Assembly (NCBI GenBank): GCA_040901865.1
Contig: JBBDYD010000136.1
Span: 29,912 to 88,200, forward strand
From: Bacteroidota bacterium
GTDB lineage: Bacteria > Bacteroidota > Ignavibacteria > UBA10030
Direction of reading: 5' to 3'
Length of the DNA stretch: 58,289 nucleotides
Part shown: one piece after another, positions 3,555 through 48,781 of the stretch
Layout of the letters: each line of letters begins with the position of its first letter
Position numbering within the stretch: the first letter of the stretch is position 1
Notes under the pieces: generated by a model
Told to the model about the DNA's origin: nothing
Seen by the model: only the letters and a program-made list of their open reading frames with translations
Database searches by the model: none
Translations under genes and position numbers: made by a program

Positions 3555-3569
3555 AGGATCATCTCCTGA

Positions 3570-19130: not shown

Positions 19131-19177
19131 TGAAGAGTGAAGAGTGAAGAGTGAAGAGTAAAGAGTAAAAAGAAAAG
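19129..19177. repeat. Heptanucleotide tandem array (AGTGAAG)4 decaying to AGTAAAG AGTAAAA AGAAAAG
   Basis: Seven consecutive 7-nt units fill the whole intergenic gap between the stop at 19130 and the ATG at 19179. Confidence 0.9.
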
Positions 19178-21475: not shown

Positions 21476-21501
21476 CAGTAGGAGGAGATTGGAAGCCGGA
21501 G

Positions 21502-21571
21502 GTCAGAGGTCAGAAGTCAGAAGTCAGAGGTCAGAAGTCAGAGGTCAGAAGTCAGAGGTCAGAAGTCGGAA
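21502..21571. repeat. Heptanucleotide tandem array (RGTCAGA)10
   Basis: Ten consecutive units of GGTCAGA/AGTCAGA, with the last unit AGTCGGA. Lies between the LacI stop and the receptor start. Confidence 0.95.
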
Positions 21572-26412: not shown

Positions 26413-26517
26413 GGACGATACAACTTCTGCGTCGGCCGGGGGTCGAACCTCCGGCCGGTGCAGATGTATTCTGATGCATACGTGTACAGTTCTTCCTATT
26501 TTGAACAAAGAGTAATA

Positions 26518-27732
26518 ATGACGATGGGGCTCAACATGTTCTTCCGCATCCTTGCCTGTTGCCTCGCTACAACCGCAGCACGGGGACAGGAACTCGAAAT
26601 CCTTGTAACGAATCCGTACAATGTCCGTCGAGCGAACGAACCCGTTGTCGTTCCCTACGTGGAGATTCAAAAGAATGTACCAACGGACCTCGCCAGGAAA
26701 CTCCGGCTCCTGGACGAAAGCAACCGGTCCATGGCATTTCAAGTGGACGATCTGGATGGAAACGGTTCACCGGACGAATTTGTGTTTGTAGCAGACTTTG
26801 CCCCAAATCAGGACCGGCGATTCGTGTTAACGTCCGGTGCCGATTCGCTCGCGCTTCCCGCGGGTCCATTCCGGACGGATGTTGCAAACTTCAAGCGGAT
26901 CGGAGGAGTTTCCGTGTCTGTGGACGATGACGACGGGCCGGGAACATTGCGGAGTCAGGGTCAATATCCGTTCGACGGTGTCGGATGGGAATCGGAGGTT
27001 ATCGGTTACCGTCTCTATCTGGATGAACGGAATGCGGTTGACATTCAGGCGAAGAAAATTCCCGGACTTCATTGGGCGTACATCGGCAATACGGGAGTGA
27101 ACTATCAGTTGGATGCGTATTGGGGGATGGATCCGCTCCATGTCGGCGGGGCCCTGGGGATCGGGGGAATGGGGTTCTGGATCAAAGACGCTGTGAATCA
27201 TCCGATGAGGCTTGATCGCCGTCGCTGCCGCGTCATTGCACGCGGGCCTGTTCGCGCCGTTGCACGCGTGGACTATGACGGCTGGGATATCGGAGGGGAA
27301 AAAGTTGATGTCACATCGTTGTTCGTCATCTATGGCGGAGATCGAATGACCGAGCACCGCGTGATGCTTCGGTCCGCCGCACCGAGAACGATCGCCGTCG
27401 GTATCGTAAAACATGCACACGCACGGGCCTCCTGGGATCCGGCCGCAGCGACCATGTTCACGGTTGGGGCACAATCGAGAACGAACGACTCGCTCCTGAT
27501 GGCGCTTACGTTCGATCCGGCCGCCGTTGTCAGGAAGACAGAAGACAAAGCGAATCACCTTGTATTGCTTCGCCTCGATAAGAACACGACGCTGAGATAT
27601 TTCATCTCGGCTTACTGGCAGGGCGAAACCGGGACAATGCTGAGCGAGTCCGGAACGAAGGATCTCCTGCAGACTATGAGGCGAAGATTGACCGAACCGC
27701 TTAACGTGCGGTTCATGAAACCACGACCATGA
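26518..27732 (+). CDS. DUF4861 domain protein
   Basis: Signal peptide. The GVGWESEVIGYRLYLDERNAVDIQAKK block matches my recollection of the DUF4861 family, which is commonly found in pectin and hexuronate loci. Confidence 0.6.
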   Translation: MTMGLNMFFRILACCLATTAARGQELEILVTNPYNVRRANEPVVVPYVEIQKNVPTDLARKLRLLDESNRSMAFQVDDLDGNGSPDEFVFVADFAPNQDRRFVLTSGADSLALPAGPFRTDVANFKRIGGVSVSVDDDDGPGTLRSQGQYPFDGVGWESEVIGYRLYLDERNAVDIQAKKIPGLHWAYIGNTGVNYQLDAYWGMDPLHVGGALGIGGMGFWIKDAVNHPMRLDRRRCRVIARGPVRAVARVDYDGWDIGGEKVDVTSLFVIYGGDRMTEHRVMLRSAAPRTIAVGIVKHAHARASWDPAAATMFTVGAQSRTNDSLLMALTFDPAAVVRKTEDKANHLVLLRLDKNTTLRYFISAYWQGETGTMLSESGTKDLLQTMRRRLTEPLNVRFMKPRP

Positions 27733-29198
27733 GCACACTATTCATTCATGAAGATATTCTGCTGGAAAACGGACGGGCAAAAGAACTCTATCATTCGGTT
27801 GCCAAGTCTCTTCCGATCATTGACTATCATTGTCACATTTCACCCAAAGACATAGCGGAGGACAGGCGGTTCCGCAACCTGACCGAGATCTGGCTTGCCG
27901 GCGACCATTACAAATGGCGGGCGATGCGGACCTGCGGCGTAAATGAACGCTTTATCACCGGAGGGGCGTCCGATTGGGAGAAATTCGAACAATGGGCGGA
28001 GACGGTTCCAAAGACGCTGCGCAATCCCCTCTATCATTGGACCCATTTTGAGCTGAAGAGGCCCTTCGGCATCGCCGATCGTCTTCTGAATCCCGAAACG
28101 GCAAAGAGCATCTGGCAAGAGTGCAACGCAATGCTTGGCACCCCGGAGTTTTCCACGCGCGGGATTCAGAAACAAATGAATGTCGAGATTGTCTGCACGA
28201 CCGACGATCCCGTCGATTCGCTCGAGGAACACAAGCAAATACGGGCGGCTCGTGAATTTCCGGTCCGAGTATACCCCTGTTTCCGCCCTGACAAGGCGAT
28301 GACGCCGGAGGATCCGAAACTCTTCCGGCAGTACGTCGGATTGCTCGAAGAGGCGGTGCGCGGGGATATTCGGACGTTCGATGATTACATCACGGCTCTG
28401 CGAAAACGCCACGAATACTTTCACCGTGCGGAATGCCGACTTTCGGACCACGGGCTGGAAACCGTCTATGCCGAGTCGTACACCGATCGGGATGTGAAGG
28501 CGATCTTCAGGAAACTGCGCCTAGGGCGGAAGATCACATCGCTTGAAGCCCTTAAATTCCGGTCCGCCATGCTGTACGAACTTGCCGTCATGGATTGGGA
28601 ACAGGGATGGACCCAGCAGTTTCACCTGGGCGCCCTGCGCAATACGAACGCAAGGGCCCACAGGGTCAACGGTCCCGACACCGGATACGACTCGATCGGC
28701 GATTTTGAGCAGGCGAGGCCCCTCGCCCGGTTTCTCAATCGGCTCGAATCGGAAGAGAAGCTCACGAAAACGATCCTCTATAATCTTAATCCTCGTGACA
28801 ACGAACTCTTTGCCTCCATGATCGGCAATTTCCAGGACGGCTCCGTTCCGGGGAAACTGCAGTACGGATCCGCATGGTGGTTCCTGGACCAGGCGGACGG
28901 CATGACCCGGCAGATCGATGCCCTTTCCAACATGGGCATTCTGAGCCAGTTTATCGGAATGCTGACGGATTCGCGAAGTCTGCTGTCGTATCCGAGGCAC
29001 GAGTACTTCCGGCGGCTCCTTTGCAACATCCTCGGCGGCGAAATGGAACGGGGATTGATCCCGAACGACTTGAACCTCGTCGGCGCGATGGTCCGAGACA
29101 TTTGCTACTTCAACGCAAAGCGCTATTTCAATTTTCCGGAACTTGAACACTCGGCGAGTAGTTCTGAACAACCGCGGCGGGTAGCCGCAACCTCATGA
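27729..29198 (+). CDS. uxaC: Glucuronate isomerase
   Basis: 489 aa. PIIDYHCHISPKDIAED..F.NLTEIWL.GDHYKWRAMR..GV is the canonical UxaC N-terminus. Confidence 0.92.
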   Translation: MSTLFIHEDILLENGRAKELYHSVAKSLPIIDYHCHISPKDIAEDRRFRNLTEIWLAGDHYKWRAMRTCGVNERFITGGASDWEKFEQWAETVPKTLRNPLYHWTHFELKRPFGIADRLLNPETAKSIWQECNAMLGTPEFSTRGIQKQMNVEIVCTTDDPVDSLEEHKQIRAAREFPVRVYPCFRPDKAMTPEDPKLFRQYVGLLEEAVRGDIRTFDDYITALRKRHEYFHRAECRLSDHGLETVYAESYTDRDVKAIFRKLRLGRKITSLEALKFRSAMLYELAVMDWEQGWTQQFHLGALRNTNARAHRVNGPDTGYDSIGDFEQARPLARFLNRLESEEKLTKTILYNLNPRDNELFASMIGNFQDGSVPGKLQYGSAWWFLDQADGMTRQIDALSNMGILSQFIGMLTDSRSLLSYPRHEYFRRLLCNILGGEMERGLIPNDLNLVGAMVRDICYFNAKRYFNFPELEHSASSSEQPRRVAATS

Positions 29199-29947
29199 AT
29201 CTCTTCGACCTCAAAGGAAAAACCGCCGTTGTCACAGGCGCCAGCACCGGACTCGGCCGCGCGATGACGCTCGCGCTTGCAGCGTCGGGCGCCGACATTC
29301 TTCTTGTTGACCACTCGAAGAAAGAAGAAACGGCCCGTGAAGTAAGAACCCTGGGCCGCAAGGCAGTTGCGATGGAGGCAGATCTTGCGCGCATGGATTC
29401 GGCAGAGAAGATCGTGGGGAAGGCGATCGTCGAATTCGGAAAGGTCGACATTCTGGTGAACAACGCCGGGATTATCCGCAGGGCTCCAGCGCTGGAATTC
29501 TCTGAACAGGATTGGGATGATGTTCTGGCTGTGAATGCGAAATCGGTTTTCTTTCTGGCCCAGGCGGCCGCGCGTGATATGATGAAGCGGAAATCCGGGA
29601 AGATCATCAACGTTGCATCCCTGCTTTCGTTTCAGGGAGGTATTCTGGTGCCGTCCTATGCTGCGAGCAAAGGCGCTGTCGCACAGCTTACCAAGTCCCT
29701 CGCCAACGAATTGGCCGCGTATGGCATCACGGTAAACGCGATCGCTCCCGGCTATATGGAAACCAACAATACAAAGGCGCTCCGGGAGGATCCGGTTCGC
29801 TCAAAGTCCATCCTCGAACGCATTCCCGCGGGGCGATGGGGCGTCCCTGATGATCTGGGCGGCGCGGTGGTGTTTCTTGCCTCGTCCGCGTCAGACTATG
29901 TCAACGGCCATGTGCTGGTGGTTGACGGCGGATGGATGGCCCGGTAA
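29195..29947 (+). CDS. kduD: 2-dehydro-3-deoxy-D-gluconate 5-dehydrogenase
   Basis: 250 aa SDR. Long collinear identity with E. coli KduD as I recall it (DILVNNAG.IRR..ALEFSE.DWDDV, KIIN.AS.LSFQGGI.VPSY.ASK, RIPAGRWG.P.DL.G..VFLASSASDYVNG....VDGGW.AR). Confidence 0.9.
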   Translation: MNLFDLKGKTAVVTGASTGLGRAMTLALAASGADILLVDHSKKEETAREVRTLGRKAVAMEADLARMDSAEKIVGKAIVEFGKVDILVNNAGIIRRAPALEFSEQDWDDVLAVNAKSVFFLAQAAARDMMKRKSGKIINVASLLSFQGGILVPSYAASKGAVAQLTKSLANELAAYGITVNAIAPGYMETNNTKALREDPVRSKSILERIPAGRWGVPDDLGGAVVFLASSASDYVNGHVLVVDGGWMAR

Positions 29948-29970
29948 CACACTTAACTCAGGACACGTCA

Positions 29971-30804
29971 ATGGAAGTCCGATATCTCCCGAATCAGGAA
30001 GCGTATAAAAGTCTGGAGACCGAGGAATTACGTCGGTCGTTTGTCATGGAAACGTTGTTCCAGCCGAATGCGGTCTCGATGGTGTATTTCGAGACAGACC
30101 GGTCGATCGTCGGCGGTGTGCTGCCGGGTGACGCTCCGTTAAAGCTTCTGCCCACGCGGCAGGAAATGGCATCGGACTATTTTACGGAACGAAGGGAAGT
30201 CGGCATTGTGAATGTCGGCGGCAATGCGGTCGTGCGTGTTGACGATCACGATCACACGCTGCATGGCAACGATATGCTCTACGTCGGGCGTGGAAAAAAG
30301 AAGATCGAATTTCGCAGTCAGGACAATAAGACCCCCGCCGCGCTGTATTTTGTTTCCTATCCGGCCCATGTCGATTATCCCGATACGCTCGTCCAGCACA
30401 GCGAGGCCGAAAAAGTGACCATCGGGTCCGCGGAAGGAGCCAACAAGAGGACGATCAACAAGTACATTCATACGGGCGGCATCAAAAGCTGTCAGCTCGT
30501 GATGGGACTGACGCAGCTGGAATCGGGAAGCATCTGGAACACCATGCCGGCGCATACGCATCAGCGCCGTTCCGAGGTCTATCTGTATTACGCCCTCGGG
30601 CCCGACGATCTGGTGGTTCACCTGATGGGAACGCCGCGGGAAACGCGCAACATTATTCTACGCGATCGACAGGCGGTGATCTCCCCGAGCTGGTCGGTGC
30701 ATTGCGGGGCCGGTACGCGCAACTATTCGTTCGTCTGGGCCATGGGCGGAGAAAACCAGGAGTTCTCCGACATGGATGGCGTACCGATGCCGTCGCTGCT
30801 GTAA
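29971..30804 (+). CDS. kduI: 5-dehydro-4-deoxy-D-glucuronate isomerase
   Basis: 277 aa. RRTINKY, WNTMP.HTH.RR.EVY.Y, AVISPSWS.H.G.GT..Y.F.W.M.GENQ.F.DMD match KduI. Start at MEVRY, preceded by AGGA. Confidence 0.9.
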   Translation: MEVRYLPNQEAYKSLETEELRRSFVMETLFQPNAVSMVYFETDRSIVGGVLPGDAPLKLLPTRQEMASDYFTERREVGIVNVGGNAVVRVDDHDHTLHGNDMLYVGRGKKKIEFRSQDNKTPAALYFVSYPAHVDYPDTLVQHSEAEKVTIGSAEGANKRTINKYIHTGGIKSCQLVMGLTQLESGSIWNTMPAHTHQRRSEVYLYYALGPDDLVVHLMGTPRETRNIILRDRQAVISPSWSVHCGAGTRNYSFVWAMGGENQEFSDMDGVPMPSLL

Positions 30805-30837
30805 GTGATCTCCTGAAGAACTGAAAGAACTCTGGCA

Positions 30838-32139
30838 ATGAAACTGGAACAGTATTCAATAGGAATAGGTGACCGTTTTGGAATGGAATGTGTCGCTCAG
30901 CTCCGCGCGCTTCAAATGGCGGAGTCGCACGGAGTGTCCGTCGTTCCCGTTTGGAACAAATCGAACCGCGAGCACACGATCATCGGAACGATCCCCGGTG
31001 ACGCGCGCCGGGCAGCCGATGTAGCGGTACAATCGTGCGGGTGGACGGCATCCTATTACGTGGACGCCGATCATATCGGCCTAGCGACGGTGGAGAAGTT
31101 CCTTGAGCCGAGTAATTTTTTCACCATCGACGTGGCTGATTTCATCGAAAAACAGGCTTCTGCCGATGTCCTCTCTTCGTTTGTCAAGGACATGAGCCGC
31201 TTTCGGGGTTCGCGGGCCATTCCGGGTGTTGAACGCCCTTTGAGCGTCAGTGACGAATTCCTGGCTGCTGTCGCCGCAAAGTACGCGCTTGCTGTCCGGG
31301 AGGCCGGCAAGGTGTACCGGTTCATAGCTGAACGAAAGGGAGCAGACAATTTCATTGCGGAGATCTCCTGTGACGAAACCAATACCCCGCAGTCACCGGC
31401 GGAACTGTTCTTCATTCTGGCCGCCGTGGCAAAGGAAGGCGTGCCGATCCAGACGATCGCACCGAAGTTCAGCGGATCGTTCCTGAAAGGCGTGGATTAT
31501 GTCGGCGAGCTTCGCCAGTTCAGGCAGGAATTCGAAGACGACCTGGCCGTCGTGGCGCATGCCAGGAGCGTGTTCGATCTTCCGAAGAACCTAAAACTGA
31601 GCATTCATTCCGGAAGCGATAAGTTTTCCTTATACCCCATCATGCACGCGGCGATGAAGAAGTTCGATGCCGGTCTTCACCTGAAGACCGCCGGAACGAC
31701 CTGGCTGGAAGAAGTCATCGGCCTTGGCTCTGCTGGGGGTGACGGGCTTCTCTTTGCAAAGGAAATTTACGCCGAAGCGGTCAAACGCTTCGACGAGCTT
31801 GCGAAGCCATACGCGACGGTCATTCACGTCGATCGGAATGCACTTCCCGACCCGGCCACCGTTGCCCGCTGGAGCCCGACGGAGTTTTCAGAGGCCCTGA
31901 CGCACGATCAAGGCTGCCCGCGCTTCGATGGACAATTCCGCCAGCTCATTCACATTGCCTTCCGGCTTGCGGCGGAGAGGGGAGAACGCTTCCGGGATCT
32001 TCTCCGATTACACCGGGAATCGATCGAAGCGAATGTGACTGGGAATCTCTTCGACCGGCATATCCTTCCATTGTTCCTCGGGGCAACCGCAAAGGACGAA
32101 CGCCTGACAGCTGCAGCAAATCCGGCCGCGACGATATGA
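30838..32139 (+). CDS. uxaE: Tagaturonate/fructuronate epimerase (UxaE family)
   Basis: The GIGDRFG, VDADHI, SCDETNTPQSP, SIHSGSDKFSLYP and HLKTAGTTWLEEV blocks parallel those of Thermotoga maritima UxaE as I recall them. Confidence 0.7.
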   Translation: MKLEQYSIGIGDRFGMECVAQLRALQMAESHGVSVVPVWNKSNREHTIIGTIPGDARRAADVAVQSCGWTASYYVDADHIGLATVEKFLEPSNFFTIDVADFIEKQASADVLSSFVKDMSRFRGSRAIPGVERPLSVSDEFLAAVAAKYALAVREAGKVYRFIAERKGADNFIAEISCDETNTPQSPAELFFILAAVAKEGVPIQTIAPKFSGSFLKGVDYVGELRQFRQEFEDDLAVVAHARSVFDLPKNLKLSIHSGSDKFSLYPIMHAAMKKFDAGLHLKTAGTTWLEEVIGLGSAGGDGLLFAKEIYAEAVKRFDELAKPYATVIHVDRNALPDPATVARWSPTEFSEALTHDQGCPRFDGQFRQLIHIAFRLAAERGERFRDLLRLHRESIEANVTGNLFDRHILPLFLGATAKDERLTAAANPAATI

Positions 32140-33149
32140 TGGGCCATTCACACGCGGGCCGGCTCCAATCAACCCTCCTTCGGCATTCTGTCATTGCATT
32201 GATACTGCTCGTTACCGGACCGGCATGCCGGGGCGTGACCGAGGTGACAGTGCTGAAACTCGCCCACGGACTGGACCGGACCCATCCCGTCCATGTCTCC
32301 ATGGAGCACATGGCCCGGCTTGTTCAGGAACGATCGGTGGGAAGGATGCGCATTGACATCTACCCGAGCGGCCAGCTCGGCACCGAACGCGAATGCCTTG
32401 AGCTTGTCCAGATCGGGAGTCTTGCAATGACAAAGGTCTCTTCAAGCGTCCTGGAAGGATTTGCCCCGTCGTTCAAGGTGTTCAGCCTGCCGTACTTGTT
32501 TCGGGACGAGGAGCATCGGTTCAGGGTCCTGGACGGTGAGATCGGTCAGCGCCTGTTGATGGAAACCGAGCCGTTCCGGCTCCTGGGACTGGTATACCTT
32601 GATGCCGGGAGCCGAAGTTTCTACTCGAAAGACAAGCCGATCCTCACACCGGAAGATCTCCGGGGAATGAAGATACGCGTGCAGGAAAGCGCCACCTCGA
32701 TGAAGATGATCCAGGCGCTCGGCGGGTCCGCCACGCCGATCGCGTGGGGCGAGCTCTACACGGCTCTTCAACAAGGTGTTGTCGACGGCGCCGAGAATAA
32801 TCCCCCGTCGTTCTACACGTCACGTCATTATGAGGTCTGCAAATTCTATTCGTTGAACGAACATACGGCAGTTCCTGATGTCATGATCATCAGTACCGTT
32901 GTTTGGAATTCGCTCACTCCCGAGGAGCAGGGGATTCTACGGCAGGCGGCGAGTGACGCGAAAGAAGTACAAAAAATCCGATGGCGGGAAGCGTCTGCTG
33001 AAGCACTGGCAAGGGTCCAAGAGGCCGGCGTGACCATCTATCATCCTGATCGGACTCTCTTTGCAGAGAAGGTCCGCCCGATGGTCGAGCAATTCAAATC
33101 GGAACCGGCAGTCTACGATCTGATCCTGAAGATCAGAGGTGCACAATGA
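32136..33149 (+). CDS. TRAP transporter substrate-binding protein (DctP family)
   Basis: 337 aa. Signal or lipoprotein-like N-terminus. LKLAH......HP.H......A..V.E.S.G.M.I.IYP..QLG.E and GAENN motifs. Confidence 0.85.
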   Translation: MMGHSHAGRLQSTLLRHSVIALILLVTGPACRGVTEVTVLKLAHGLDRTHPVHVSMEHMARLVQERSVGRMRIDIYPSGQLGTERECLELVQIGSLAMTKVSSSVLEGFAPSFKVFSLPYLFRDEEHRFRVLDGEIGQRLLMETEPFRLLGLVYLDAGSRSFYSKDKPILTPEDLRGMKIRVQESATSMKMIQALGGSATPIAWGELYTALQQGVVDGAENNPPSFYTSRHYEVCKFYSLNEHTAVPDVMIISTVVWNSLTPEEQGILRQAASDAKEVQKIRWREASAEALARVQEAGVTIYHPDRTLFAEKVRPMVEQFKSEPAVYDLILKIRGAQ

Positions 33150-33649
33150 CCCTTGAACGTGTTCGCTCCTCGGTCGACAAGGCAGTTGAGTGGATGCTGA
33201 TTGTCGTATTTGCGACGATGACACTCAACGTGCTCTGGCAGGTATTCACACGGTTTGTACTTGGTGATCCGAGTTCCTATACCGAGGAACTTGCCCGCTA
33301 CCTCCTTGTCTGGTTGGGGTTGCTCGGCGGCGCCTATGCTGTCGGCAAGAAGATGCATCTCGCCATCGACATTGTTCCAACTCTCGTCAAAGGTCGTCGC
33401 CGGCACATGCTCGAGATATTCATTCAATCTTCCATTTTTGTGTTTGCTATCGGCATTGTGCTGTTGGGTGGACTGAACCTCGTCGGATTGACATTGACGC
33501 TGCGGCAGGTTTCCGCGGCCCTTCAGATTCAGCTCGGATATGTCTATCTTGTTCTTCCGGTCAGCGGAGTTCTGATGATGTTTTATTCGGGAACGTACAT
33601 TCTTGAAAGCATTGGGGCCCTCAGGGAGGACCGGCATGGAATGGATTGA
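33146..33649 (+). CDS. TRAP transporter small permease (DctQ family)
   Basis: 167 aa with four hydrophobic helices. W.EEL.RYL.VW...LG...A motif. Lies between the DctP and DctM genes. Confidence 0.85.
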   Translation: MTLERVRSSVDKAVEWMLIVVFATMTLNVLWQVFTRFVLGDPSSYTEELARYLLVWLGLLGGAYAVGKKMHLAIDIVPTLVKGRRRHMLEIFIQSSIFVFAIGIVLLGGLNLVGLTLTLRQVSAALQIQLGYVYLVLPVSGVLMMFYSGTYILESIGALREDRHGMD

Positions 33650-34934
33650 AGTGATTGTCCTGGTTGGCGTCTTCGGCATGCTGATCTCGGCCGGTGTTCC
33701 GATATCGTTCTGCATCGGAATTGCGACCGCGGTCACCATGCTGGTGACGATCATGCCGATGCCTGCCGTTACGACCGTGGCGCAGAGAATGGCAACGGGG
33801 TTGGACAGCTTTGCACTGCTCGCGATCCCGTTCTTTATATTGTCGGGACAATTGATGAACAGAGGGGGAATAGCCCGGCGCCTTATCGAATTTGCAAAAG
33901 TGCTCGTGGGAATGCTCCCCGGTGGTCTGGCCTTTGTCAATATCATGGCAAATATGTTGTTCGGATCGATTTCCGGTTCTGCCGTCGCGGCAGCTTCGGC
34001 CATTGGCGGATTTATGACGCCGTTGATGGATAAGGAGGGATACGACCGCGATTTCAGCGCTGCTGTGAATATTTCCTCGGCGACAACTGGTTTGCTCATC
34101 CCCCCGAGTAATGTTCTAATCGTCTATTCCCTGGCGAGCGGCGGGGTTTCCATCGCCGCGCTGTTTCTCGCAGGCTATATTCCGGGCATTCTCCTTGGAA
34201 TCATGCTCATGAGCGTTGCAGCAGTAATCGCAATTCGCCGAAAGTATCCGGTGGGAGGATTCGTTCCCGTGCGAGAGGCGCTGTTGAAGCTCTTTGATGC
34301 GGTCCCCAGCCTCTTGCTTGTCGTCATCGTCATGGGAGGTATTGTCCTCGGATATTTCACCGCAACGGAGGCATCAGCCATCGCCGTCCTGTACACCTTT
34401 GTTCTCTCCGTGATCGTCTACCGCGAGGTCAAGGTCTCGGAACTTCCGGGAATCCTGCTCTCTGCCGCGTCCACGACAGCCATCGTCATGCTCCTGATCG
34501 GAACTTCCATGGGAATGTCCTGGATCCTGGCCTATACGAACATTCCGCAAAATGTGAGCGCCGCCCTGTTGGGGCTCACGGATAACAAGATCATGATCCT
34601 GCTGATCATCAATCTGATTCTGCTGACCGTCGGAACGTTCATGGACATGACGCCGGCCGTGCTTATTTTTACGCCGATCTTCCTTCCCGTTGCCGTGGGT
34701 CTGGGTATTGACCCGGTTCATTTCGGTATTATCATCGTATTCAATCTCTGTATCGGGCTTTGCACCCCGCCCGTCGGAAGCGTGCTGTTCGTGGGTGCGG
34801 GAATCGCCAATATCACCATCGCAAAGATCATTCGACCGCTCATGCCGATGTTTCTTGCGATGATCGTTTCGCTGCTTATCGTCACCTATGTACCGGATAT
34901 TTCATTATTCGTTCCGAGATTGTTCGGATTCTAA
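33636..34934 (+). CDS. TRAP transporter large permease (DctM family)
   Basis: About 432 aa polytopic membrane protein. Start at MEWIEV, overlapping the dctQ end. Typical DctM blocks (LLAIPFFILSG.LM..GG...RL). Confidence 0.88.
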   Translation: MEWIEVIVLVGVFGMLISAGVPISFCIGIATAVTMLVTIMPMPAVTTVAQRMATGLDSFALLAIPFFILSGQLMNRGGIARRLIEFAKVLVGMLPGGLAFVNIMANMLFGSISGSAVAAASAIGGFMTPLMDKEGYDRDFSAAVNISSATTGLLIPPSNVLIVYSLASGGVSIAALFLAGYIPGILLGIMLMSVAAVIAIRRKYPVGGFVPVREALLKLFDAVPSLLLVVIVMGGIVLGYFTATEASAIAVLYTFVLSVIVYREVKVSELPGILLSAASTTAIVMLLIGTSMGMSWILAYTNIPQNVSAALLGLTDNKIMILLIINLILLTVGTFMDMTPAVLIFTPIFLPVAVGLGIDPVHFGIIIVFNLCIGLCTPPVGSVLFVGAGIANITIAKIIRPLMPMFLAMIVSLLIVTYVPDISLFVPRLFGF

Positions 34935-34952
34935 AAACATCGGGTATCAATC

Positions 34953-35780
34953 GTGAAGCCAATTGGAGAATCGTACGATTTCTCAAACCGCACCGTGGTG
35001 ATCACCGGCGGTACGGGTGTCCTGGGCCGCTCAATGGCTCTGTCACTTTCAGCCTGCGGAGCAAATGTTGCAGTGATTTCGAGAAACCCTTCGAAAGCAT
35101 CAGACCTTCTTGAGCAGGCAAAAAAGACCCGCGGGACGATGAAGGCCTTCGGGGCGGACGTTGTGGACAAGAAGGGCCTTGAGAAGGCGAACGCGGACAT
35201 CCTTGAAGCATTTGGGAAGATCGACTGCCTGATCAATGCAGCTGGGGGCAACAGCCCCATGGCCACGACCAATAACGATCGATCCTTCTTTCAGTTAAGC
35301 GAGCAGGGCCTGCGGGATGTTTCCGATCTCAACCTGCTCGGCACAATCCTGCCCTGCCAGGTGTTCGGTAAGGTGATGGCCGATAACAAAGAAGGCGTGA
35401 TCTTGAATGTGACGTCGGTTGCCGGTCTGCGCCCGCTGACTCGCGTTGCCGGGTACGCGGCCGCCAAAGCGGCGGTCAGTAATTTCACCCGATGGCTCGC
35501 CGTCACCATGGCGCAGGAGTTTTCTCCTGCCATTCGGGTCAATGCCCTGGCTCCCGGATTCTTTCTCACCGAGCAGAATCGGTTTCTACTGACCGATGAA
35601 AAAACGGGAGCGCTCACGGAGCGCGGCCAAAAAATCATCGCCCATACCCCCATGGGACGCTTTGGAAAGCCCGAAGACCTCAACGGCGCCGTTCTCTGGC
35701 TGCTTTCACCAGCATCCGAGTTCGTCACCGGAATTGTGGTGTTTGTCGATGGGGGATTCTCAGCGTATTCAGGCGTCTGA
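34953..35780 (+). CDS. SDR-type D-mannonate oxidoreductase / fructuronate reductase-like
   Basis: 275 aa. TGGTGVLG Rossmann motif, catalytic YAAAK, and the FFLTEQNR loop typical of the SDR UxuB/YjmF-like group. GTG start. Confidence 0.65.
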   Translation: MKPIGESYDFSNRTVVITGGTGVLGRSMALSLSACGANVAVISRNPSKASDLLEQAKKTRGTMKAFGADVVDKKGLEKANADILEAFGKIDCLINAAGGNSPMATTNNDRSFFQLSEQGLRDVSDLNLLGTILPCQVFGKVMADNKEGVILNVTSVAGLRPLTRVAGYAAAKAAVSNFTRWLAVTMAQEFSPAIRVNALAPGFFLTEQNRFLLTDEKTGALTERGQKIIAHTPMGRFGKPEDLNGAVLWLLSPASEFVTGIVVFVDGGFSAYSGV

Positions 35781-35787
35781 TGTCGTT

Positions 35788-36957
35788 ATGCTTAAACAAA
35801 AGCCCGTCATCGTTGTCAACCGCAGCACACCCTTCGCAGCGGAGGTTTTCGCGCATCTCGGTGAAGTGATCGCCCTCGAATCCGCCGAGGTGACGAACAA
35901 GACTGTCCGGGACGCCGATATTCTCATTGTCCGTTCGGAAACCAAAGTCGACAAAACGCTGCTCGAAGGCAGCCGGGTTCGGTTTGTCGGAACCGTCACG
36001 ATCGGAACGGACCACATCGATCGCAGCTACCTGAATTCCAAAGGCATCACCTTCGCCAGCGCTCCGGGCAGTAATGCCAATTCGGTTGCAGAATACGTCG
36101 TAGCCGGACTGCTCACATGGGTCGGCCGGACAGGTCAATCGCTGAAGGGAAAGACGATCGGCATCGTCGGGGTCGGGAACGTAGGGAGCAAAGTGGTGAA
36201 CGTCGTGCTAGCGCTCGGGATGATCCCCCTTCTGAATGATCCGCCGCGGGCCCGGAAGGAATCCGAATCATCCTTTCTTCCGCTCGACGAACTGATGAAT
36301 GCCGATTTCATCACACTGCACGTTCCGCTGGCAACGAGCGGGGATGACGCCACCCTTCATTTGTTCGACAAGCAGCAAATAGGCAAAATGAAGCGCGGGT
36401 CGGTGCTCATCAACACTTCGCGGGGAGCTGTTGTTGAGACTGCCGCACTGCAGAATGCACTTGCCTCCACTCACCTTTCAACCGCCATCCTCGATGTTTG
36501 GGAACACGAACCCGTCATCAACAAGGAACTCCTTGATCGCGTTATGCTCGGTACGCCGCATATCGCCGGCTATTCCCTGGACGGCAAACTAAACGCGCTG
36601 AAAATGGTGTACGAGGACGTTTGCAATTTTTTGGACGTTCAACCGGATTGGTCTGTGGATGCCGGCGCCCCGGAAGGGTCATCCCGCCTTCAGTTGCCTG
36701 CTCATCTGAAGAACGAGATGGCGTTGGCGTTTGCTGTCCGACAAGCGTATGATATTGAACTCGATGATTCCCTGTTGCGGGAAGCATCCGCGATTACCGA
36801 TGGCCGTCCGGGGGAACATTTTATGAACCTGCGGGCCGAGTATCGCATCAGGCGCGAATTTGGCAATTTTGAGGTCCAACTTTATCAGGTCGGGCCTGGT
36901 GCCGTCCTCCAACAACTTGGATTCAGGACGCTCGTACAGGAGACAGCGCGGCTGTGA
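35788..36957 (+). CDS. D-isomer-specific 2-hydroxyacid dehydrogenase, PdxB (4-phosphoerythronate dehydrogenase)-like
   Basis: 389 aa. GIVGVGNVGSKV NAD motif. PdxB-like N-terminal catalytic domain and an extra C-terminal domain. Start placed at the first ATG after the upstream stop. Confidence 0.65.
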   Translation: MLKQKPVIVVNRSTPFAAEVFAHLGEVIALESAEVTNKTVRDADILIVRSETKVDKTLLEGSRVRFVGTVTIGTDHIDRSYLNSKGITFASAPGSNANSVAEYVVAGLLTWVGRTGQSLKGKTIGIVGVGNVGSKVVNVVLALGMIPLLNDPPRARKESESSFLPLDELMNADFITLHVPLATSGDDATLHLFDKQQIGKMKRGSVLINTSRGAVVETAALQNALASTHLSTAILDVWEHEPVINKELLDRVMLGTPHIAGYSLDGKLNALKMVYEDVCNFLDVQPDWSVDAGAPEGSSRLQLPAHLKNEMALAFAVRQAYDIELDDSLLREASAITDGRPGEHFMNLRAEYRIRREFGNFEVQLYQVGPGAVLQQLGFRTLVQETARL

Positions 36958-38222
36958 GTACGATCGGAAAAGGGTCAGCAGAACAAGCGCTTTCAGATTC
37001 TGAGATCAGGGAGATCTGCTCCCTGGCCTTCTCAGCCCCGGTCTTTGAAGGAAAACGGGTTCTCGTTCTTATTCCGGACCACACCCGCCATGCGCGCATT
37101 GACCTGTTCTTTCACATTATCTGTGATCTCCTGATCAAGCGAACGAAGTCGCTGGATTTTCTTATTGCCACCGGCACGCATGCCGATATGGAGCCGGAGA
37201 GGATCTATCGGCATGTAGGGATCACGCAGGCCGAGCATCGGTCGAAGTTCGCGACTGTCCGTTTCTTCAATCATGAGCACCAAAACCCTGCTGCCCTGGC
37301 GGCGATCGGCACAATCCCTGCGGATGAAATCGAACAGGTCACCCGCGGAGTCTTTGCGGAGCCGCTGGAGATCACGGTCAACCGGAAGGTCCTCGAATAT
37401 GATCACGTGATCATCGTTTCGCCGGTTGTACCGCATGAAGCGATGGGGTTCGCAGGTGGAAACAAGTATTTTTTCCCCGGAATTGCAGGACTGAAAGTCA
37501 TTGAGACGTTCCACTGGCTCGGTGCCATACTCACCAATCCGGCTGTCAACGGCGTCAAAGACACGCCCACGCGGCGGCTGATCGAGCGAGCCGCTGAATT
37601 CATATCGACGCCTCGCACCTGTCTGGCGTTTGCCGTCGACGAACGCAACAACCCCCGGTGTTTATTCATCGGAGATCCGAAAGGAGCATGGTCCCGCGCT
37701 GCGGATTATTCTGCAAGCCTTCACATCAGCTATGTCGACAAACCGTATGAAACGGTGCTTGCGATCACCCCGGACCTTTATGAAGAAGTATGGGTGGGAG
37801 GAAAGGCGATGTACAAACTCGAACCAATCGTCGCCGACGGGGGAGAGGTGATTATTTACGGACCGCAGATCAAACAGATCTCGTTTGTCCATGAAAACGA
37901 CATTCGGCGAATCGGCTACCATGTCGTGGAGTATTTCACGAAGCAATGGGAGCGATTCAAGCATGAGCCGAAACTGATCCTGGCGCATTCGACGAACGTT
38001 CGGGGGATCGGAACATTTGCAGACGGGGTCGAGAGGCCTCGCATTAATGTCACGCTTGCCACATCCATTTCGGAGGAGATCTGCAAAAAGGTCAACCTTG
38101 GTTTTCGTGACTATCGCACAATCGACCTTAAGGCGTGGCGGTCAAAGAAGGATAAGAACACGATGGTTGTGGAGAATGCGGGGCAGAATTTATTTCGATT
38201 AAAGAACGGTCAAACACACTGA
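36954..38222 (+). CDS. LarA-like (DUF2088) nickel-pincer-nucleotide-dependent 2-hydroxyacid racemase/epimerase homolog
   Basis: 422 aa. ATGTH (His76) and PHEAMGFAGGNKYFFPGIAGLKVIETFH, with His161, Lys171 and His187 spaced 10 and 16 residues apart. This is the same spacing as His174/Lys184/His200 of L. plantarum LarA. GTGA overlap with the upstream gene. Confidence 0.75.
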   Translation: MSTIGKGSAEQALSDSEIREICSLAFSAPVFEGKRVLVLIPDHTRHARIDLFFHIICDLLIKRTKSLDFLIATGTHADMEPERIYRHVGITQAEHRSKFATVRFFNHEHQNPAALAAIGTIPADEIEQVTRGVFAEPLEITVNRKVLEYDHVIIVSPVVPHEAMGFAGGNKYFFPGIAGLKVIETFHWLGAILTNPAVNGVKDTPTRRLIERAAEFISTPRTCLAFAVDERNNPRCLFIGDPKGAWSRAADYSASLHISYVDKPYETVLAITPDLYEEVWVGGKAMYKLEPIVADGGEVIIYGPQIKQISFVHENDIRRIGYHVVEYFTKQWERFKHEPKLILAHSTNVRGIGTFADGVERPRINVTLATSISEEICKKVNLGFRDYRTIDLKAWRSKKDKNTMVVENAGQNLFRLKNGQTH

Positions 38223-38261
38223 CCGGGCGGTTTTCGACGACTGATTTCTAAAGGAGCTATA

Positions 38262-39344
38262 ATGAGTAACGATCTGAAGATCCCAAGTACCGGAGCCCTT
38301 GATTTTGTTTCTCTGGGAGCTCTTGTCCACCGTCTGGATCCCGGGATCATACCGTTCCGCAAGGCAAGTTCCTGTTCGATTCACGTCAGTGGAGGCGAAT
38401 TCAACGCGGCGGCGAACCTCGCAGACTGCTTTCGAATGAACACAGGGATCGCAACCGCCATGGTTGATTATCCGATCGGTGATCTGATTGCCGAACGGGT
38501 GCGGGCAATGGGAGTGAAGCCGTTCTACAAGCATTTCAAGCACAATGGCGTGACCGGGCCGAACATGGCGACGGTGTATAGCGACCGAGGGCATGGTGTT
38601 CGGGGTCCTGTGGTGTTTTACAACCGAAGCAACGAAGCGGCGGCGCAGTTGAAACCGGGTGATTTCGACTGGAAAACCATATTCGCGGGTGGTGTGCGAT
38701 GGTTTCACAGCGGCGGGATCTTCGCGGCCCTGTCGGAATCAACGGGCGAAGTGATCGTTGAGGGCATGAAGGCGGCCAAGAAGGCCGGTGCGATCGTGAG
38801 CTTCGATCTCAACTTCCGCGAAAAACTCTGGAACCTTTGGGGCGGACAGAAAAAAGCCGTGGAAGTGATAGCGAAAATCGTGGAACATTGTGACGTGCTC
38901 GTGGGAAACGAGGAGGATCTGCAAAAAGGCCTCGGCATTGCCGGGCCCGAAGTGGAAGCGAAATCCAAACTCGATCCCGGCACGTTCTTCGGGATGATTG
39001 GCAAAGTGACGGCAAAATATCCGCAGGTCAAAGTCGTAGCGACAACTTTGCGGGAAGTGCACTTGACGAATCATCACAGCTGGAGTGCCGTGGCCTGGGT
39101 TGACGGGAAAACCTATTCAGCACCTACCGCAGAACTCGACGTCATAGACCGGGTCGGCGGAGGAGACGGATTTGCGAGCGGATTCTTCTACGGCTTGCTG
39201 GCTGGAGAATCCCCGGAAGAAGCAGTGAAACTCGGATGGGCGCACGGAGCACTTCTCACCACGTTTCCCGGCGACACAACAATGTCCACCGTCGAACAAG
39301 TCCGCGCCTTTGCAAAAGGCGGCTCTGCGAGAATACAGAGGTAG
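38262..39344 (+). CDS. kdgK: PfkB family sugar kinase, probable 2-dehydro-3-deoxygluconokinase
   Basis: 360 aa. GGEFN.A, a C-terminal DRVGGGDGFASGF ATP/anion-hole motif, and the hexuronate operon context. Confidence 0.7.
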   Translation: MSNDLKIPSTGALDFVSLGALVHRLDPGIIPFRKASSCSIHVSGGEFNAAANLADCFRMNTGIATAMVDYPIGDLIAERVRAMGVKPFYKHFKHNGVTGPNMATVYSDRGHGVRGPVVFYNRSNEAAAQLKPGDFDWKTIFAGGVRWFHSGGIFAALSESTGEVIVEGMKAAKKAGAIVSFDLNFREKLWNLWGGQKKAVEVIAKIVEHCDVLVGNEEDLQKGLGIAGPEVEAKSKLDPGTFFGMIGKVTAKYPQVKVVATTLREVHLTNHHSWSAVAWVDGKTYSAPTAELDVIDRVGGGDGFASGFFYGLLAGESPEEAVKLGWAHGALLTTFPGDTTMSTVEQVRAFAKGGSARIQR

Positions 39345-39346
39345 GA

Positions 39347-39460
39347 TTGGTGTAAGGTAATAGTTACTAGTTATTAGGTATTGGTGGATTGCTGTTCACC
39401 GTTTACCGTTCACGGTTTACTATTCACTACTCTTCACTCTTTACTCTTCACCCTTCACCA
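39347..39460. repeat. Two-armed heptanucleotide array (about 16 units)
   Basis: AGGTAAT AGTTACT AGTTATT AGGTATT ... CACCGTT TACCGTT CACGGTT TACTATT CACTACT CTTCACT CTTTACT CTTCACC CTTCACC. The right arm is the reverse complement of the AGTGAAG/AGTAAAG family seen at 19129. Confidence 0.9.
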
Positions 39461-39473
39461 TTGAGATACTCAT

Positions 39474-40928
39474 ATGCCCTCAAAAGCTGACATAGGCCTG
39501 GTAGGACTCGCCGTCATGGGAGAAAACCTCGTCTTGAACATGGAAAGCCGTGGATTCACGGTTGCTGTTTTCAATCGTACTGTCGATAAAGTCAATCAGT
39601 TCGTTCAGGGAAGGGGAAAAGGAAAGAACGTCATCGGAGCCAAATCAATTCCTGAACTTGTACAATCCCTTAAAAAACCCCGCAAGATCATGCTGATGGT
39701 CAAAGCGGGAAAACCCGTGGACGACCTCATTGGTCAGCTTCTGCCGCATCTCGAACAAGGGGATATTGTGATCGATGGGGGAAACTCACATTTCCCCGAT
39801 ACCATTCGCAGAACAAAATACCTCGAAGAGAAAGGGATGTTATTCATCGGTACCGGAGTTTCAGGCGGCGAAGAAGGGGCCTTACGCGGTCCTTCGATCA
39901 TGCCGGGAGGTTCGTCGGCCGCGTGGCCGCATGTAAAGCCCATCTTCCAATCCATTGCCGCAAAGGTGGAGGACGGAACCCCGTGCTGCGACTGGGTTGG
40001 TGAAAACGGGGCGGGACATTTTGTGAAGATGGTGCACAACGGAATCGAGTACGGTGACATGCAGCTCATTTGCGAGGCCTATCAGATCATGAAGGAGCTG
40101 CTGGGGATGAACGCGGGTGAAATGCATGAAGTCTTCAAACAGTGGAATACGGGTGATCTGGACAGCTATCTGATCGAGATCACACGCGACATCCTGGCGC
40201 ACAAAGATGATGACGGCAGTGCTCTTGTTGACAAGATCCTCGATACTGCGGGACAGAAAGGAACGGGGAAATGGACGAGTGTCTCGGCGCTGGATCTTGG
40301 AATCCCGTTGACGCTGATCAGCGAAGCCGTGTACGCACGGTGCCTCTCGGCAATGAAAACTGAACGTGTTGCGGCTGCCAAAGTGCTGAACGGCCCGAAA
40401 CCGGTGTTCACCGGTGACCGCGCGACTTTCCTGCGGGATCTGGAACATGCTCTCTATGCGTCGAAGATCGTCTCGTACGCTCAGGGGTTCACGCTGCTTC
40501 GCTCAGCGGCGGCTGAGTTCAAGTGGGACTTGAAGTATGGTTCCATCGCACTGATGTGGCGGGGCGGATGCATCATTCGGTCGGCATTTCTCGGCAAGAT
40601 CAAGGAGGCATTCGACAGAAATCCCGATCTGGCGAACGTTCTGCTCGATTCATTCTTCAGGCAGAAGATCGAGGAGTCTCAGGCGGCATGGCGGAGGGTG
40701 ATCGCGGCGGCAGTTCTCAACGGTATCTGGATCCCGGCGTTCTCCACAGCGTTGAATTACTTCGACGGGTACAGAAATGCCCGCCTTCCGGCAAACCTGT
40801 TGCAGGCTCAGCGCGATTACTTCGGCGCTCATCAGTACGAACGGATAGATAAGCCTGTCGGGGAATTTTTCCACACGAATTGGACGGGTCGCGGCGGAGA
40901 AACGGCTTCAACGGCGTACGTGGCCTGA
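39474..40928 (+). CDS. gnd: 6-phosphogluconate dehydrogenase (decarboxylating)
   Basis: 484 aa. IGLVGLAVMGENL.LN..S.GF, DGGNS.F.DT.RR, GTGVSGGEEGA..GPS.MPGG and HFVKMVHNGIEYGDMQLI are canonical Gnd blocks. Confidence 0.93.
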   Translation: MPSKADIGLVGLAVMGENLVLNMESRGFTVAVFNRTVDKVNQFVQGRGKGKNVIGAKSIPELVQSLKKPRKIMLMVKAGKPVDDLIGQLLPHLEQGDIVIDGGNSHFPDTIRRTKYLEEKGMLFIGTGVSGGEEGALRGPSIMPGGSSAAWPHVKPIFQSIAAKVEDGTPCCDWVGENGAGHFVKMVHNGIEYGDMQLICEAYQIMKELLGMNAGEMHEVFKQWNTGDLDSYLIEITRDILAHKDDDGSALVDKILDTAGQKGTGKWTSVSALDLGIPLTLISEAVYARCLSAMKTERVAAAKVLNGPKPVFTGDRATFLRDLEHALYASKIVSYAQGFTLLRSAAAEFKWDLKYGSIALMWRGGCIIRSAFLGKIKEAFDRNPDLANVLLDSFFRQKIEESQAAWRRVIAAAVLNGIWIPAFSTALNYFDGYRNARLPANLLQAQRDYFGAHQYERIDKPVGEFFHTNWTGRGGETASTAYVA

Positions 40929-40952
40929 GGGGATCAAGTTTGATTCAATTCG

Positions 40953-40973
40953 TCCCGCCAAACAGAGGCGGGA
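40953..40973 (+). terminator. Hairpin downstream of gnd (TCCCGCC-N7-GGCGGGA)
   Basis: Perfect 7-bp GC-rich stem, 25 nt after the gnd stop. There is no clear U-tract, so terminator function is uncertain. Confidence 0.4.
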
Positions 40974-40990
40974 TCTCCGCTTCGCTCCGA

Positions 40991-41027
40991 CAATTCGACA
41001 TTTGACATTCGACATTCGAAATTCACC
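40991..41027. repeat. Heptanucleotide tandem array (ACATTCG-like, about 5 units)
   Basis: CAATTCG ACATTTG ACATTCG ACATTCG AAATTCA, between the convergent gene ends of gnd and the 41030-41455 gene. Confidence 0.85.
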
Positions 41028-41029
41028 GA

Positions 41030-41455
41030 CTATCTCTTGAGCTCCGCCACGGTGAGACTTTCCACTTCGAGGTGCGGATGGGAGATGGCTTCCTTGATTG
41101 TCCGCAAACGGGTCTCGGAAAACCACTGAACATCCAGCCCGTTCAGTTCCGCCACAAGCTTGAGCCAATCTTCTTCCGACTGATGGATCTCATTGTCTGA
41201 AAAAGCCAGTACGAGGCCATCCTGCACAAACTTCGTTGCAAGGTCTTTGGACGAGAACTTCGGGGGCTGATCCCTGACATGTTCATTCTCCAAAATTCCC
41301 TTGATGGCTTGATCGCAGAACTCTTCCTCAAACCCCAACGCTTTTCCGATCCGCTTCATGAGTTGAACTTCCGATTCAGTGACCTTGCGGTCCTTTCTGA
41401 TGAGCAGAAGAAGTCCCTTGAAATAACTGCTGGCGTCGATAGCGGAGATGTTCAT
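41030..41455 (-). CDS. Small cytoplasmic protein, possibly TerB-like fold
   Basis: 141 aa, helical. Two repeated segments with E.E...L..I...LG. The family assignment is tentative. Confidence 0.35.
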   Translation of the reverse strand: MNISAIDASSYFKGLLLLIRKDRKVTESEVQLMKRIGKALGFEEEFCDQAIKGILENEHVRDQPPKFSSKDLATKFVQDGLVLAFSDNEIHQSEEDWLKLVAELNGLDVQWFSETRLRTIKEAISHPHLEVESLTVAELKR

Positions 41456-41493
41456 AATTGATGCTCTCTAATATGATGGTGGTGAGAAAACAT

Positions 41494-46002: not shown

Positions 46003-46029
46003 GGCATGCTCCTCATTCAACGGACAAAT

Positions 46030-47211: not shown

Positions 47212-47223
47212 GAAATTCCTCCG

Positions 47224-48713: not shown

Positions 48714-48781
48714 GATAACCTCCGGTGTTTCACTTGTGCCTTGTTGAGCGTCGTTTGAACCTCTGATGTACCCGGAATATC

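Follow-up and report, generated by a model that had tools for sequence, protein, structure and literature searches.

A hexuronate operon on a 58,289-nt stretch of contig JBBDYD010000136.1 from a Bacteroidota bacterium (GTDB lineage Ignavibacteria, UBA10030), the whole of which is referred to as the window, probably feeds galacturonate and glucuronate into the pentose phosphate pathway at 6-phosphogluconate, by way of a mannonate/gluconate epimerase that would depend on nickel. The region that contains it is likely the catabolic half of a pectin-utilisation locus, in which the conversion of hexuronates to ribulose 5-phosphate would involve no dehydratase of mannonate or altronate. UxaC, UxaE, a short-chain dehydrogenase/reductase (SDR) acting as fructuronate reductase, a LarA-type epimerase, and Gnd are encoded together in the window, and this set is conserved in relatives. 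The route itself is already known from Thermotoga; what is different here is the family of the kinase, the addition of a gene of a separate PdxB clade, the presence of the kduID branch in the same unit, and the lineage of the host. The genes of the operon are the following:

27729-29198, + strand: uxaC, glucuronate/galacturonate isomerase (PF02614, 660 bits; NF002794, 621 against a cutoff of 387)
29195-29947, + strand: kduD, 2-dehydro-3-deoxy-D-gluconate 5-dehydrogenase (TIGR01832, 375.5 against a cutoff of 338.85)
29971-30804, + strand: kduI, 5-dehydro-4-deoxy-D-glucuronate isomerase (NF002091, 398 against a cutoff of 250)
30838-32139, + strand: UxaE-family tagaturonate/fructuronate epimerase (PF16257, 186 bits against 27.1)
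32136-33149, + strand: dctP of a tripartite ATP-independent periplasmic (TRAP) transporter (PF03480, PF04290, and PF06808 across dctPQM)
33146-33649, + strand: dctQ of the same transporter
about 33636-34934, + strand: dctM of the same transporter
34953-35780, + strand: SDR-type D-mannonate oxidoreductase, i.e. fructuronate reductase (NF006132, 354 against a cutoff of 281)
35788-36957, + strand: PdxB-type dehydrogenase of 389 aa (PF00389, PF02826, PF11890)
36954-38222, + strand: LarA homologue (PF09861, 79.7 bits)
38262-39344, + strand: PfkB-family sugar-acid kinase, here called type 1 (PF00294)
39474-40928, + strand: gnd, NADP-dependent decarboxylating 6-phosphogluconate dehydrogenase (TIGR00873, 780 against 427; PF00393, PF03446)

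Most of these genes overlap by 4 nt or are less than 40 nt apart, gnd is the final gene of the unit, and the neighbour beyond it is convergent; we infer that the unit is co-transcribed. All assignments for which a curated-model cutoff exists pass it, except those of the PdxB type and the LarA homologue. The longest open reading frame (ORF) of kduI begins at 29932, but the NF002091 alignment begins at residue 14 and relatives are 277 aa long, and the start is probably Met14 at 29971. Likewise, dctM probably starts at 33636 rather than at the ORF start 33603, as judged in part from relatives of 432 aa. The UxaE-family protein matches the solved UxaE structures 6IL9 and 9LHU with E values of 2e-26 (6IL9) to 3e-24; it lacks the N-terminal 80-90 residues of the characterised enzymes and covers PF16257 positions 78-432 of 475. 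A sequence-only reading of the window, made without database searches, had listed the genes of 27729-40928, and all of them are present, co-directional on the plus strand, and tightly packed; its order needed correction, the genes running SDR, then PdxB type, then LarA homologue. That reading saw no uxuA, uxaA, uxaB, or eda in the window, with which our scans agree: UxuA, UxaA, UxaB, Eda, LarB, LarC, and LarE were not found by Pfam in nearly all window ORFs of at least 150 aa, and a tblastn search of the window with a 216-aa Eda from a related locus (L001) returned no match. A promoter and terminator scan of 26300-41600 gave counts not clearly higher than in shuffles (12 against 8.4 and 25 against 16.1), so operon limits cannot be set from them. 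The fold of the gnd leader is no more stable than expected (z -1.9), and neither Rfam families nor tRNAs were found in the window.

The best solved relative of the LarA homologue is Thermotoga maritima GntE2 (TM0442, PDB 4NAR; E 5e-68, 36.5% identity over 408 aa), which epimerises D-mannonate to D-gluconate in vitro with a nickel-pincer cofactor (PMC7583248). In alignments to 2YJG and 8EZF, all cofactor and catalytic residues are kept, D42, R45, H76, H161, K171, and H187 corresponding to LarA D72, R75, H108, H174, K184, and H200. At the class-separating positions the window protein reads E, A, A, H (E162, A163, then A-H), and the published GntE signature is E, V, A, H at LarA F175, F176, W358, and T359 (PMC11770544). 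The A-H of LILAHSTNVRG in the window protein aligns to NVAAHVINVRG of GntE2, which itself has S at the second signature position, where the window protein has A; the window protein also retains the Trp next to the His that binds nickel (FHW). We therefore place the protein in the GntE branch as a putative nickel-pincer-cofactor C2 epimerase of D-mannonate/D-gluconate or their 6-phosphates. It scores 169.7 bits with NF052594, the curated model of the group-18 hexonate epimerases, which has a cutoff of 500, and by its sequence it is a member of a GntE-branch group other than group 18 and nearer GntE2. Two background statements of the sequence-only reading were correct: the LarA superfamily includes a D-gluconate 2-epimerase, the demonstrated cases including GntE2 (PMC7583248), and a LarA-family (DUF2088) gene lies in the Thermotoga UxaE cluster, whose operon is gnd-uxaRED-gntEK (PMC3750489).

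Conservation of the cluster was assessed in related loci (numbered with the prefix L), namely the contexts of relatives of the LarA homologue, the PdxB-type protein, and the kinase, all searched with the window proteins; the PdxB-type protein was also scanned against one genome per species, and a metagenome scan with the LarA homologue as a context sample returned just two loci. The SDR, LarA, and PfkB kinase genes, in most loci with gnd, cluster with uxaC and frequently also with uxaE in contigs that are independent of one another (L001, L003, L006-L009, L011, L012, L014-L016, L019, L022, L025, L095), and the SDR gene adjoins LarA or PdxB in all related clusters. Recurrence of one gene set across many independent contigs shows that the arrangement is not due to chance. 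A recognisable uxaE is present in only about four families (L001/2, L003-5, L006/7, L016). The smallest recurring unit is uxaE-uxaC-MFS-SDR-LarA-PfkB (L003-L005; MFS, major facilitator superfamily), and the fuller clusters L001 and L006-L008 mirror the window almost gene by gene. Of the metagenome-assembled genomes with the cluster, GCA_041695085.1 and MFD05942.bin.1.467 have the PdxB-type gene, and GCA_026129445.1 is without it. Neither uxuA nor a GntK-type/FGGY kinase was found in any of about 20 related clusters. In L009 and L025, true group-18 LarA enzymes (NF052594, 653-665 bits), which share 25-27% identity with the window homologue, occupy the LarA slot, so that the two LarA groups appear interchangeable in one operon; the L009 cluster additionally includes a transketolase.

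The gnd gene is clustered with the kinase and LarA genes in L001, L006-L009, L011, L012, L014, L019, L022, L025, and L095. Its position varies: it lies 39-60 nt after the kinase without intervening repeats, before PdxB (L012, L019, L022), or after LarA (L009). As gnd recurs at several positions inside related clusters, it belongs to the unit, and the caveat of the sequence-only reading that it may be independent of the operon did not hold.

In the proposed pathway, UxaC would isomerise glucuronate to fructuronate and galacturonate to tagaturonate, the UxaE-family enzyme would epimerise tagaturonate to fructuronate, and the SDR would reduce fructuronate to D-mannonate. The LarA homologue would then invert C2, by homology with a nickel-pincer cofactor and transient oxidation of the 2-hydroxyl, and together with the PfkB kinase would yield 6-phosphogluconate, which Gnd would oxidatively decarboxylate. 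In a side branch, lyases and GH88 would release unsaturated uronate, which KduI and KduD would convert to 2-dehydro-3-deoxy-D-gluconate (KDG). The route from mannonate through gluconate and 6-phosphogluconate to Gnd, which the sequence-only reading had put forward, is supported by the homology to GntE2, a demonstrated mannonate/gluconate epimerase, by the kept residues, and by the conserved clustering; the substrates used here and the order of kinase and epimerase are what we infer.

The same pathway could run with the last two steps reversed, the PfkB kinase phosphorylating D-mannonate and the LarA homologue acting as a 6-phosphomannonate 2-epimerase to give 6-phosphogluconate. Extracts of Lactobacillus suebicus do phosphorylate mannonate first and then epimerise 6-phosphomannonate, and in that organism a gntE homologue is abundantly expressed while genes for both activities are unassigned (PMC6978723). 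The high Km of GntE2 for free mannonate, 17 mM (PMC7583248), points in the same direction, as do the window kinase, which is not of the GntK type, and the neighbouring PdxB-type protein, whose kept phosphate anchors suggest phosphorylated acids as the currency of the module. GntE2, however, is the closest characterised enzyme and uses the unphosphorylated acid, and no phosphate site was identified in the sequence of the LarA homologue; we consider the reversed order rather less probable than not.

The identity of the kinase bears on both orders. Two PfkB paralogues occur in the related clusters, type 1, as in the window, and type 2, which is linked to Eda; type 1 sequences are 73-89% identical among LarA-linked loci and 42-45% identical to type 2. 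T. maritima KdgK (TM0067, PDB 2AFB) is the best solved relative of the window kinase and resembles it in the PfkB fold, a length of about 350-360 aa, and the association with kduI and kduD, but scores 162 bits against type 1 and 245 bits against type 2. Where both types occur, type 1 lies by LarA/gnd and type 2 by eda: in L001, type 2 directly precedes eda and type 1 sits between LarA and gnd. The minimal cluster L003 carries type 1 without any KDG-forming enzyme. The closer relationship of type 2 to KdgK, the placement in L001, and the composition of L003 suggest that type 1 could be a hexonate kinase in place of GntK. The window gene, named kdgK in the sequence-only reading, encodes the only kinase available for the 6-phosphogluconate route; this kinase is a diverged paralogue of the Eda-linked KdgK type, and its substrate is ambiguous. 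It would supply the phosphorylation step, type 1 being a candidate hexonate kinase, KDG kinase, or both.

Type 1 is also unusually conserved. None of its best 120 database matches, which carry the labels Ignavibacteriota, Bacteroidota, Kryptobacter, and Acidoferrales, falls below 84% identity, and the conservation of its operon neighbours is lower (LarA 60-75%, PdxB 56-75%), which suggests either very strong constraint or recent lateral spread.

Several observations weigh against the epimerase route. The LarA homologue fails the sole curated hexonate-epimerase model and is only 36.5% identical to GntE2. Neither the window nor the flanks of related loci contain the larB, larC, and larE genes for biosynthesis of the nickel-pincer nucleotide; the published group-18 contexts lack them as well (Desguin 2020 Table S1). 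An 87%-identical type 1 copy in L097/L098 has kduI, kduD, DUF4861, and GH88 as neighbours, and LarA, gnd, and uxaC are all missing over a distance of 10 kb, which weakens the idea of a type 1 kinase dedicated to LarA. The LarA-gnd clusters L012, L019, L022, and L095 carry only the KdgK-like type 2. The window kinase, which lies with kduI and kduD and no eda in the window, may simply be KdgK, and uxuA, uxaAB, eda, and gntK could be elsewhere in the genome. Taken to its end, this would make the region an ordinary isomerase-pathway operon, with the kinase as KdgK, gnd as an independent gene, and the LarA homologue as unrelated. KduI and KduD do make KDG, which needs a KDG kinase, and one kinase is present; the L097/L098 copy and the 129-nt repeat-filled spacer before gnd also fit such an operon. 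Against it stand the linkage of SDR, LarA, and gnd in many independent contigs with gnd at several positions, the minimal cluster with its kinase and no KDG-forming enzyme, the lack of uxuA in the about 20 clusters, and the same logic already established in Thermotoga, and we regard it as quite improbable.

The PdxB-type protein has the full PdxB architecture including the dimerisation domain PF11890 (DUF3410) and can be aligned over its full length with PdxB of Salmonella and Pseudomonas (PDB 3OET, 269 bits). In common with the PdxB structures 3OET, 2O4C, and 5DT9 it has the three-domain fold with a C-terminal dimerisation domain, the D-P-P NAD loop (D151-P152-P153), the catalytic triad R208, E237, and H254, and R44, Y258, and R346 (P. 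aeruginosa numbering), which are proposed to hold the substrate phosphate in PdxB (PMC6303947). It differs in that its clade is embedded in sugar-acid operons and is without G27-R28, G266-T267, and D343; these residues are 85-94% conserved in all other PdxB sampled and read S-A, A-L, and M in the window protein. A Glu directly after the Arg-Ser phosphate motif (E46) is found in 100% of the clade and 0% elsewhere. With the PdxB equivalog model NF001309 the window protein scores 418 bits, under the cutoff of 434, as do ordinary Ignavibacteria PdxB that are unlinked (409-414). The score was tried as a discriminator of linked from housekeeping copies and proved uninformative, with 400-444 bits in both sets.

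All uronate-linked PdxB copies fall into a single clade of a neighbour-joining tree of 86 sequences, and this clade is sister to ordinary Ignavibacteria PdxB. Most distinct clade members adjoin LarA, PfkB kinase, gnd, SDR, or kduD/kduI genes, and the linkage to gnd, kinase, or LarA persists through at least six gene orders: SDR-PdxB-LarA-K1-gnd, SDR-PdxB-K2-K1-LarA18-gnd, SDR-gnd-PdxB-LarA-K2, SDR-LarA18-PdxB-K1-gnd, gnd-PdxB-K2 alone, and kduD-PdxB-K2 (K1 and K2, kinase types 1 and 2; LarA18, LarA group 18). The start and stop codons of LarA and PdxB often overlap; in the window, the start of the LarA homologue overlaps the PdxB-type stop codon as GTGA. Among 66 loci whose PdxB is more distant, the uronate context is absent, save for one gnd neighbour in L036. 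This L036 gene pair (a Brocadiia metagenome-assembled genome; divergent, with the canonical PdxB signature) was not used, one in 66 being about what chance would give. An apparent Gnd-PdxB fusion ORF in L021 (868 aa) was also set aside, as it contains an N and a frame change at the join and the genes are separate in L023. The PdxB-type gene is a conserved operon component rather than an accident of this genome. The sequence-only reading had correctly seen that it is overlap-coupled to the LarA-like gene and had found no role for it.

Since the enzyme of the PdxB clade retains both the triad and the phosphate anchors known from 4-phosphoerythronate dehydrogenase, its most likely reaction is oxidation or reduction at C2 of a phosphorylated sugar acid that belongs to the 6-phosphogluconate node. 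The compound 4-phosphoerythronate is a potent inhibitor of 6-phosphogluconate dehydrogenase and renders gluconate toxic to Bacillus subtilis that lacks the phosphatase for it (PMC6449344). Our leading guess, a speculative one, is that the enzyme removes this Gnd inhibitor when all carbon enters the pentose phosphate pathway. Oxidation of 4-phosphoerythronate beside Gnd, a shifted substrate, and a lone housekeeping PdxB carry roughly equal weight with us. That the clade is a dedicated partner of the 6-phosphogluconate route, as a guard against 4-phosphoerythronate or as a new phospho-hexonate C2 oxidoreductase, and that the type 1 kinase is at the same time the missing mannonate/gluconate kinase, is a combined proposal that we offer tentatively, as possible rather than probable. 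A literature search for PdxB, galacturonate, Gnd, and lactate racemase combined found no paper.

A shifted substrate would make the clade an oxidoreductase of 2-keto-6-phosphogluconate/6-phosphogluconate or a related phospho-hexonate, like Pseudomonas KguD, which acts after the PfkB kinase KguK; 2-keto acids would then feed into 6-phosphogluconate for Gnd. Units of gnd-PdxB-PfkB without LarA or other uronate genes (L021, L023) and of kduD-PdxB-PfkB (L026) mirror the kinase-reductase logic of the kgu operon. All through the clade, other residues stand at positions that are near-invariant in PdxB of gammaproteobacteria, Planctomycetes, Rhodothermales, and Ignavibacteria, the invariant Glu follows the Arg-Ser motif, and the changes lie in or beside segments that set specificity in this dehydrogenase family. 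On the other hand, none of the three phosphate anchors has changed, nor has their spacing to the catalytic triad, as would suit a 4-carbon substrate; no hexuronate catabolic step is known to make 2-keto-6-phosphogluconate, KguD is of a different subfamily, and the signature is common to clade members in unrelated contexts. We hold this reading, the feeding of 2-keto acids to Gnd included, to be somewhat unlikely.

Some observations count against a special role of the clade. The members L020 and L024 lie in unrelated contexts with the same residue signature, no assembly with a second pdxB was found among 80 loci in a capped scan for exact peptide patterns, which is weak evidence, and the window pdxB may thus be the only, housekeeping copy. 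With near-invariant residues lost, the substrate of the clade may also not be 4-phosphoerythronate. The gene might then be the single housekeeping 4-phosphoerythronate dehydrogenase (vitamin B6) of the lineage, caught in an old gnd-pdxB-kinase synteny block. The complete architecture and active-site residues, a model score equal to that of unlinked Ignavibacteria PdxB, and a position in a clade that is sister to the ordinary Ignavibacteria one and includes unlinked members are consistent with this, as is the scan in which no assembly occurred twice. Yet the gene stays beside gnd, kinase, or LarA through the rearranged orders, in several of which it is translationally coupled to LarA, its context is shared by none of the distant-PdxB loci beyond the chance-level L036 neighbour, and residues kept by other PdxB are missing from the clade; we hold a purely housekeeping function to be somewhat unlikely.

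The epimerase route proposed for the window resembles that of T. maritima, in which galacturonate is degraded by UxaC, UxaE, UxaD, GntE2, GntK, and Gnd, with a pectin-induced gnd-uxaRED-gntEK operon (Rodionova 2012; Desguin 2020; PMC3750489; PMC7583248). Both lead from tagaturonate through fructuronate to mannonate, followed by C2 epimerisation, phosphorylation, and Gnd, and use the same families for five of the six steps (UxaC, UxaE, SDR, LarA-type epimerase, Gnd); the SDR gene adjoins the epimerase gene in both, and some Thermotoga species have a TRAP transporter, uxaPQM, in the same regulon (PMC3750489). In contrast to Thermotoga, the window has a PfkB-family kinase instead of the FGGY GntK, a nearby regulator of the LacI rather than the GntR type, an epimerase of low identity to GntE2 (the 36.5% given above), and an inserted PdxB-clade dehydrogenase, with kduI and kduD lying in the same unit. 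Its host is a mesophile-type member of the Fibrobacteres-Chlorobi-Bacteroidetes (FCB) group with type IX secretion system (T9SS) and TonB-receptor pectin genes. LarA homologue group 18 (NF052594), a putative hexonate epimerase by name, has a published context of SDR, Gnd, ribokinase-family kinase, UxaC, and KduI (Desguin 2020 Table S1), and its members in L009 and L025 occupy an equivalent slot beside the PdxB-clade gene, kinase, and gnd; the likeness is one of genomic context, the window protein scoring 170 against the cutoff of 500 and being 25-27% identical to the L009 and L025 members. L. suebicus also uses UxaC, UxaE, fructuronate reductase, 6-phosphogluconate, and Gnd in a redox-neutral route and expresses a gntE homologue, but continues through phosphoketolase (PMC6978723).

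For the fermentation of pectin-rich waste, a redox-neutral route that takes galacturonate to ribulose 5-phosphate without a dehydratase is of interest, and its prior basis was Thermotoga genomics, one in-vitro epimerase assay, and extract activities in one Lactobacillus. The locus described here suggests that the route is widespread in uncultured Ignavibacteriota/Bacteroidota-type pectin degraders, with another kinase family, and offers candidate genes for two unassigned enzymes, mannonate kinase and 6-phosphomannonate epimerase. Its more interesting parts are the kinase, with regard to its identity, and the PdxB clade, the persistent linkage of the clade to gnd pointing to a new enzyme activity or to an operon-encoded damage-control link between 4-phosphoerythronate and Gnd.

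Other genes recur in or beside the related clusters. A gene of the 2-dehydro-3-deoxy-6-phosphogluconate (KDPG) aldolase family often lies 3' of gnd (L006 14299-15258, L008 7395-8354, L009 975-1934, L011 8425-9375) and has no counterpart in the window; its product of 316-319 aa is about 100 residues longer than a typical Eda and 33-35% identical to L001 Eda (216 aa). A haloacid dehalogenase (HAD)-family hydrolase of 295-296 aa with the motif FDSDG, 69-78% identical among clusters, directly follows the PfkB kinase in LarA/gnd clusters (L012 11838-12728, L025 4366-5253, L095 about 10299-11183); it is absent from the window and could be a sugar-acid-phosphate or 4-phosphoerythronate phosphatase. 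DUF4861, a BT3233-like polysaccharide-utilisation protein, recurs in or beside uronate clusters (L001 11148-12446, where it sits between LarA and kinase, L006 1-697, L012 429-1604, L097 7049-8344). The LarA match before the kinase gene in L095 (8001-8516) spans residues 4-175 only, so that the gene may be truncated, and a DDE transposase gene lies between dctQ and dctM in L007 (5338-6510); both point to decay of the cluster in some of its copies.

All genes from 5218 to 40928 are on the plus strand, so that the operon is preceded by co-directional genes with which it would form the pectin locus:

5218-27732, + strand: upstream pectin-utilisation genes (Pfam), comprising a Pel9A-like lyase, GH28, TonB-dependent receptors, T9SS-tailed proteins, GH88, and a SusC-like receptor
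20390-21475, + strand: LacI regulator (Pfam)
26458-27732, + strand: DUF4861 protein (NCBIfam BT3233 family, 108 bits, under the cutoff of that model), whose stop codon overlaps the uxaC start

Three ORFs of the pectin locus have no Pfam match (6663-8141, 492 aa; 12456-14693, 745 aa; 15761-17245, 494 aa) and may encode uncharacterised pectin-active or surface proteins.

The window also contains six arrays of 7-nt period, all of them intergenic:

39394-39465, + strand: heptad-period array (TTCACYN), about ten imperfect units in the 129-nt spacer before gnd
3569-3596, 19125-19177, 21492-21571, 40988-41024, and 53946-54027: the other heptad arrays

The array before gnd had been noted in the sequence-only reading and is real, the TTCACYN pattern matching 15 times in the window against 0.06 expected. 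The units of the arrays are related but different (AGTGAAG/TTCACTC, GTCAGAA, CGACATT, ACTGTTT), and most arrays closely precede a gene (that of GH88, that of the SusC-like receptor, gnd, or a SCO1-like gene). Heptad arrays were found in none of the related loci. They look like a genome-specific class of intergenic repeats rather than an operon feature and, being spread over the window and absent from related loci, provide no argument for the independence of gnd.

Beyond the operon, a sigma-54 two-component pair (42070-45068) is followed downstream by a set of minus-strand genes (45229-48827) in which two glycine-cleavage-H-like proteins of 263-272 aa flank NrfD-like membrane and 4Fe-4S dicluster proteins, an unusual pairing. 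Two adjacent RibD_C-domain paralogues lie at 1454-3087 on the minus strand, and a homocysteine S-methyltransferase fused to a methylenetetrahydrofolate reductase (MTHFR) domain is encoded at 54980-56815 on the plus strand.

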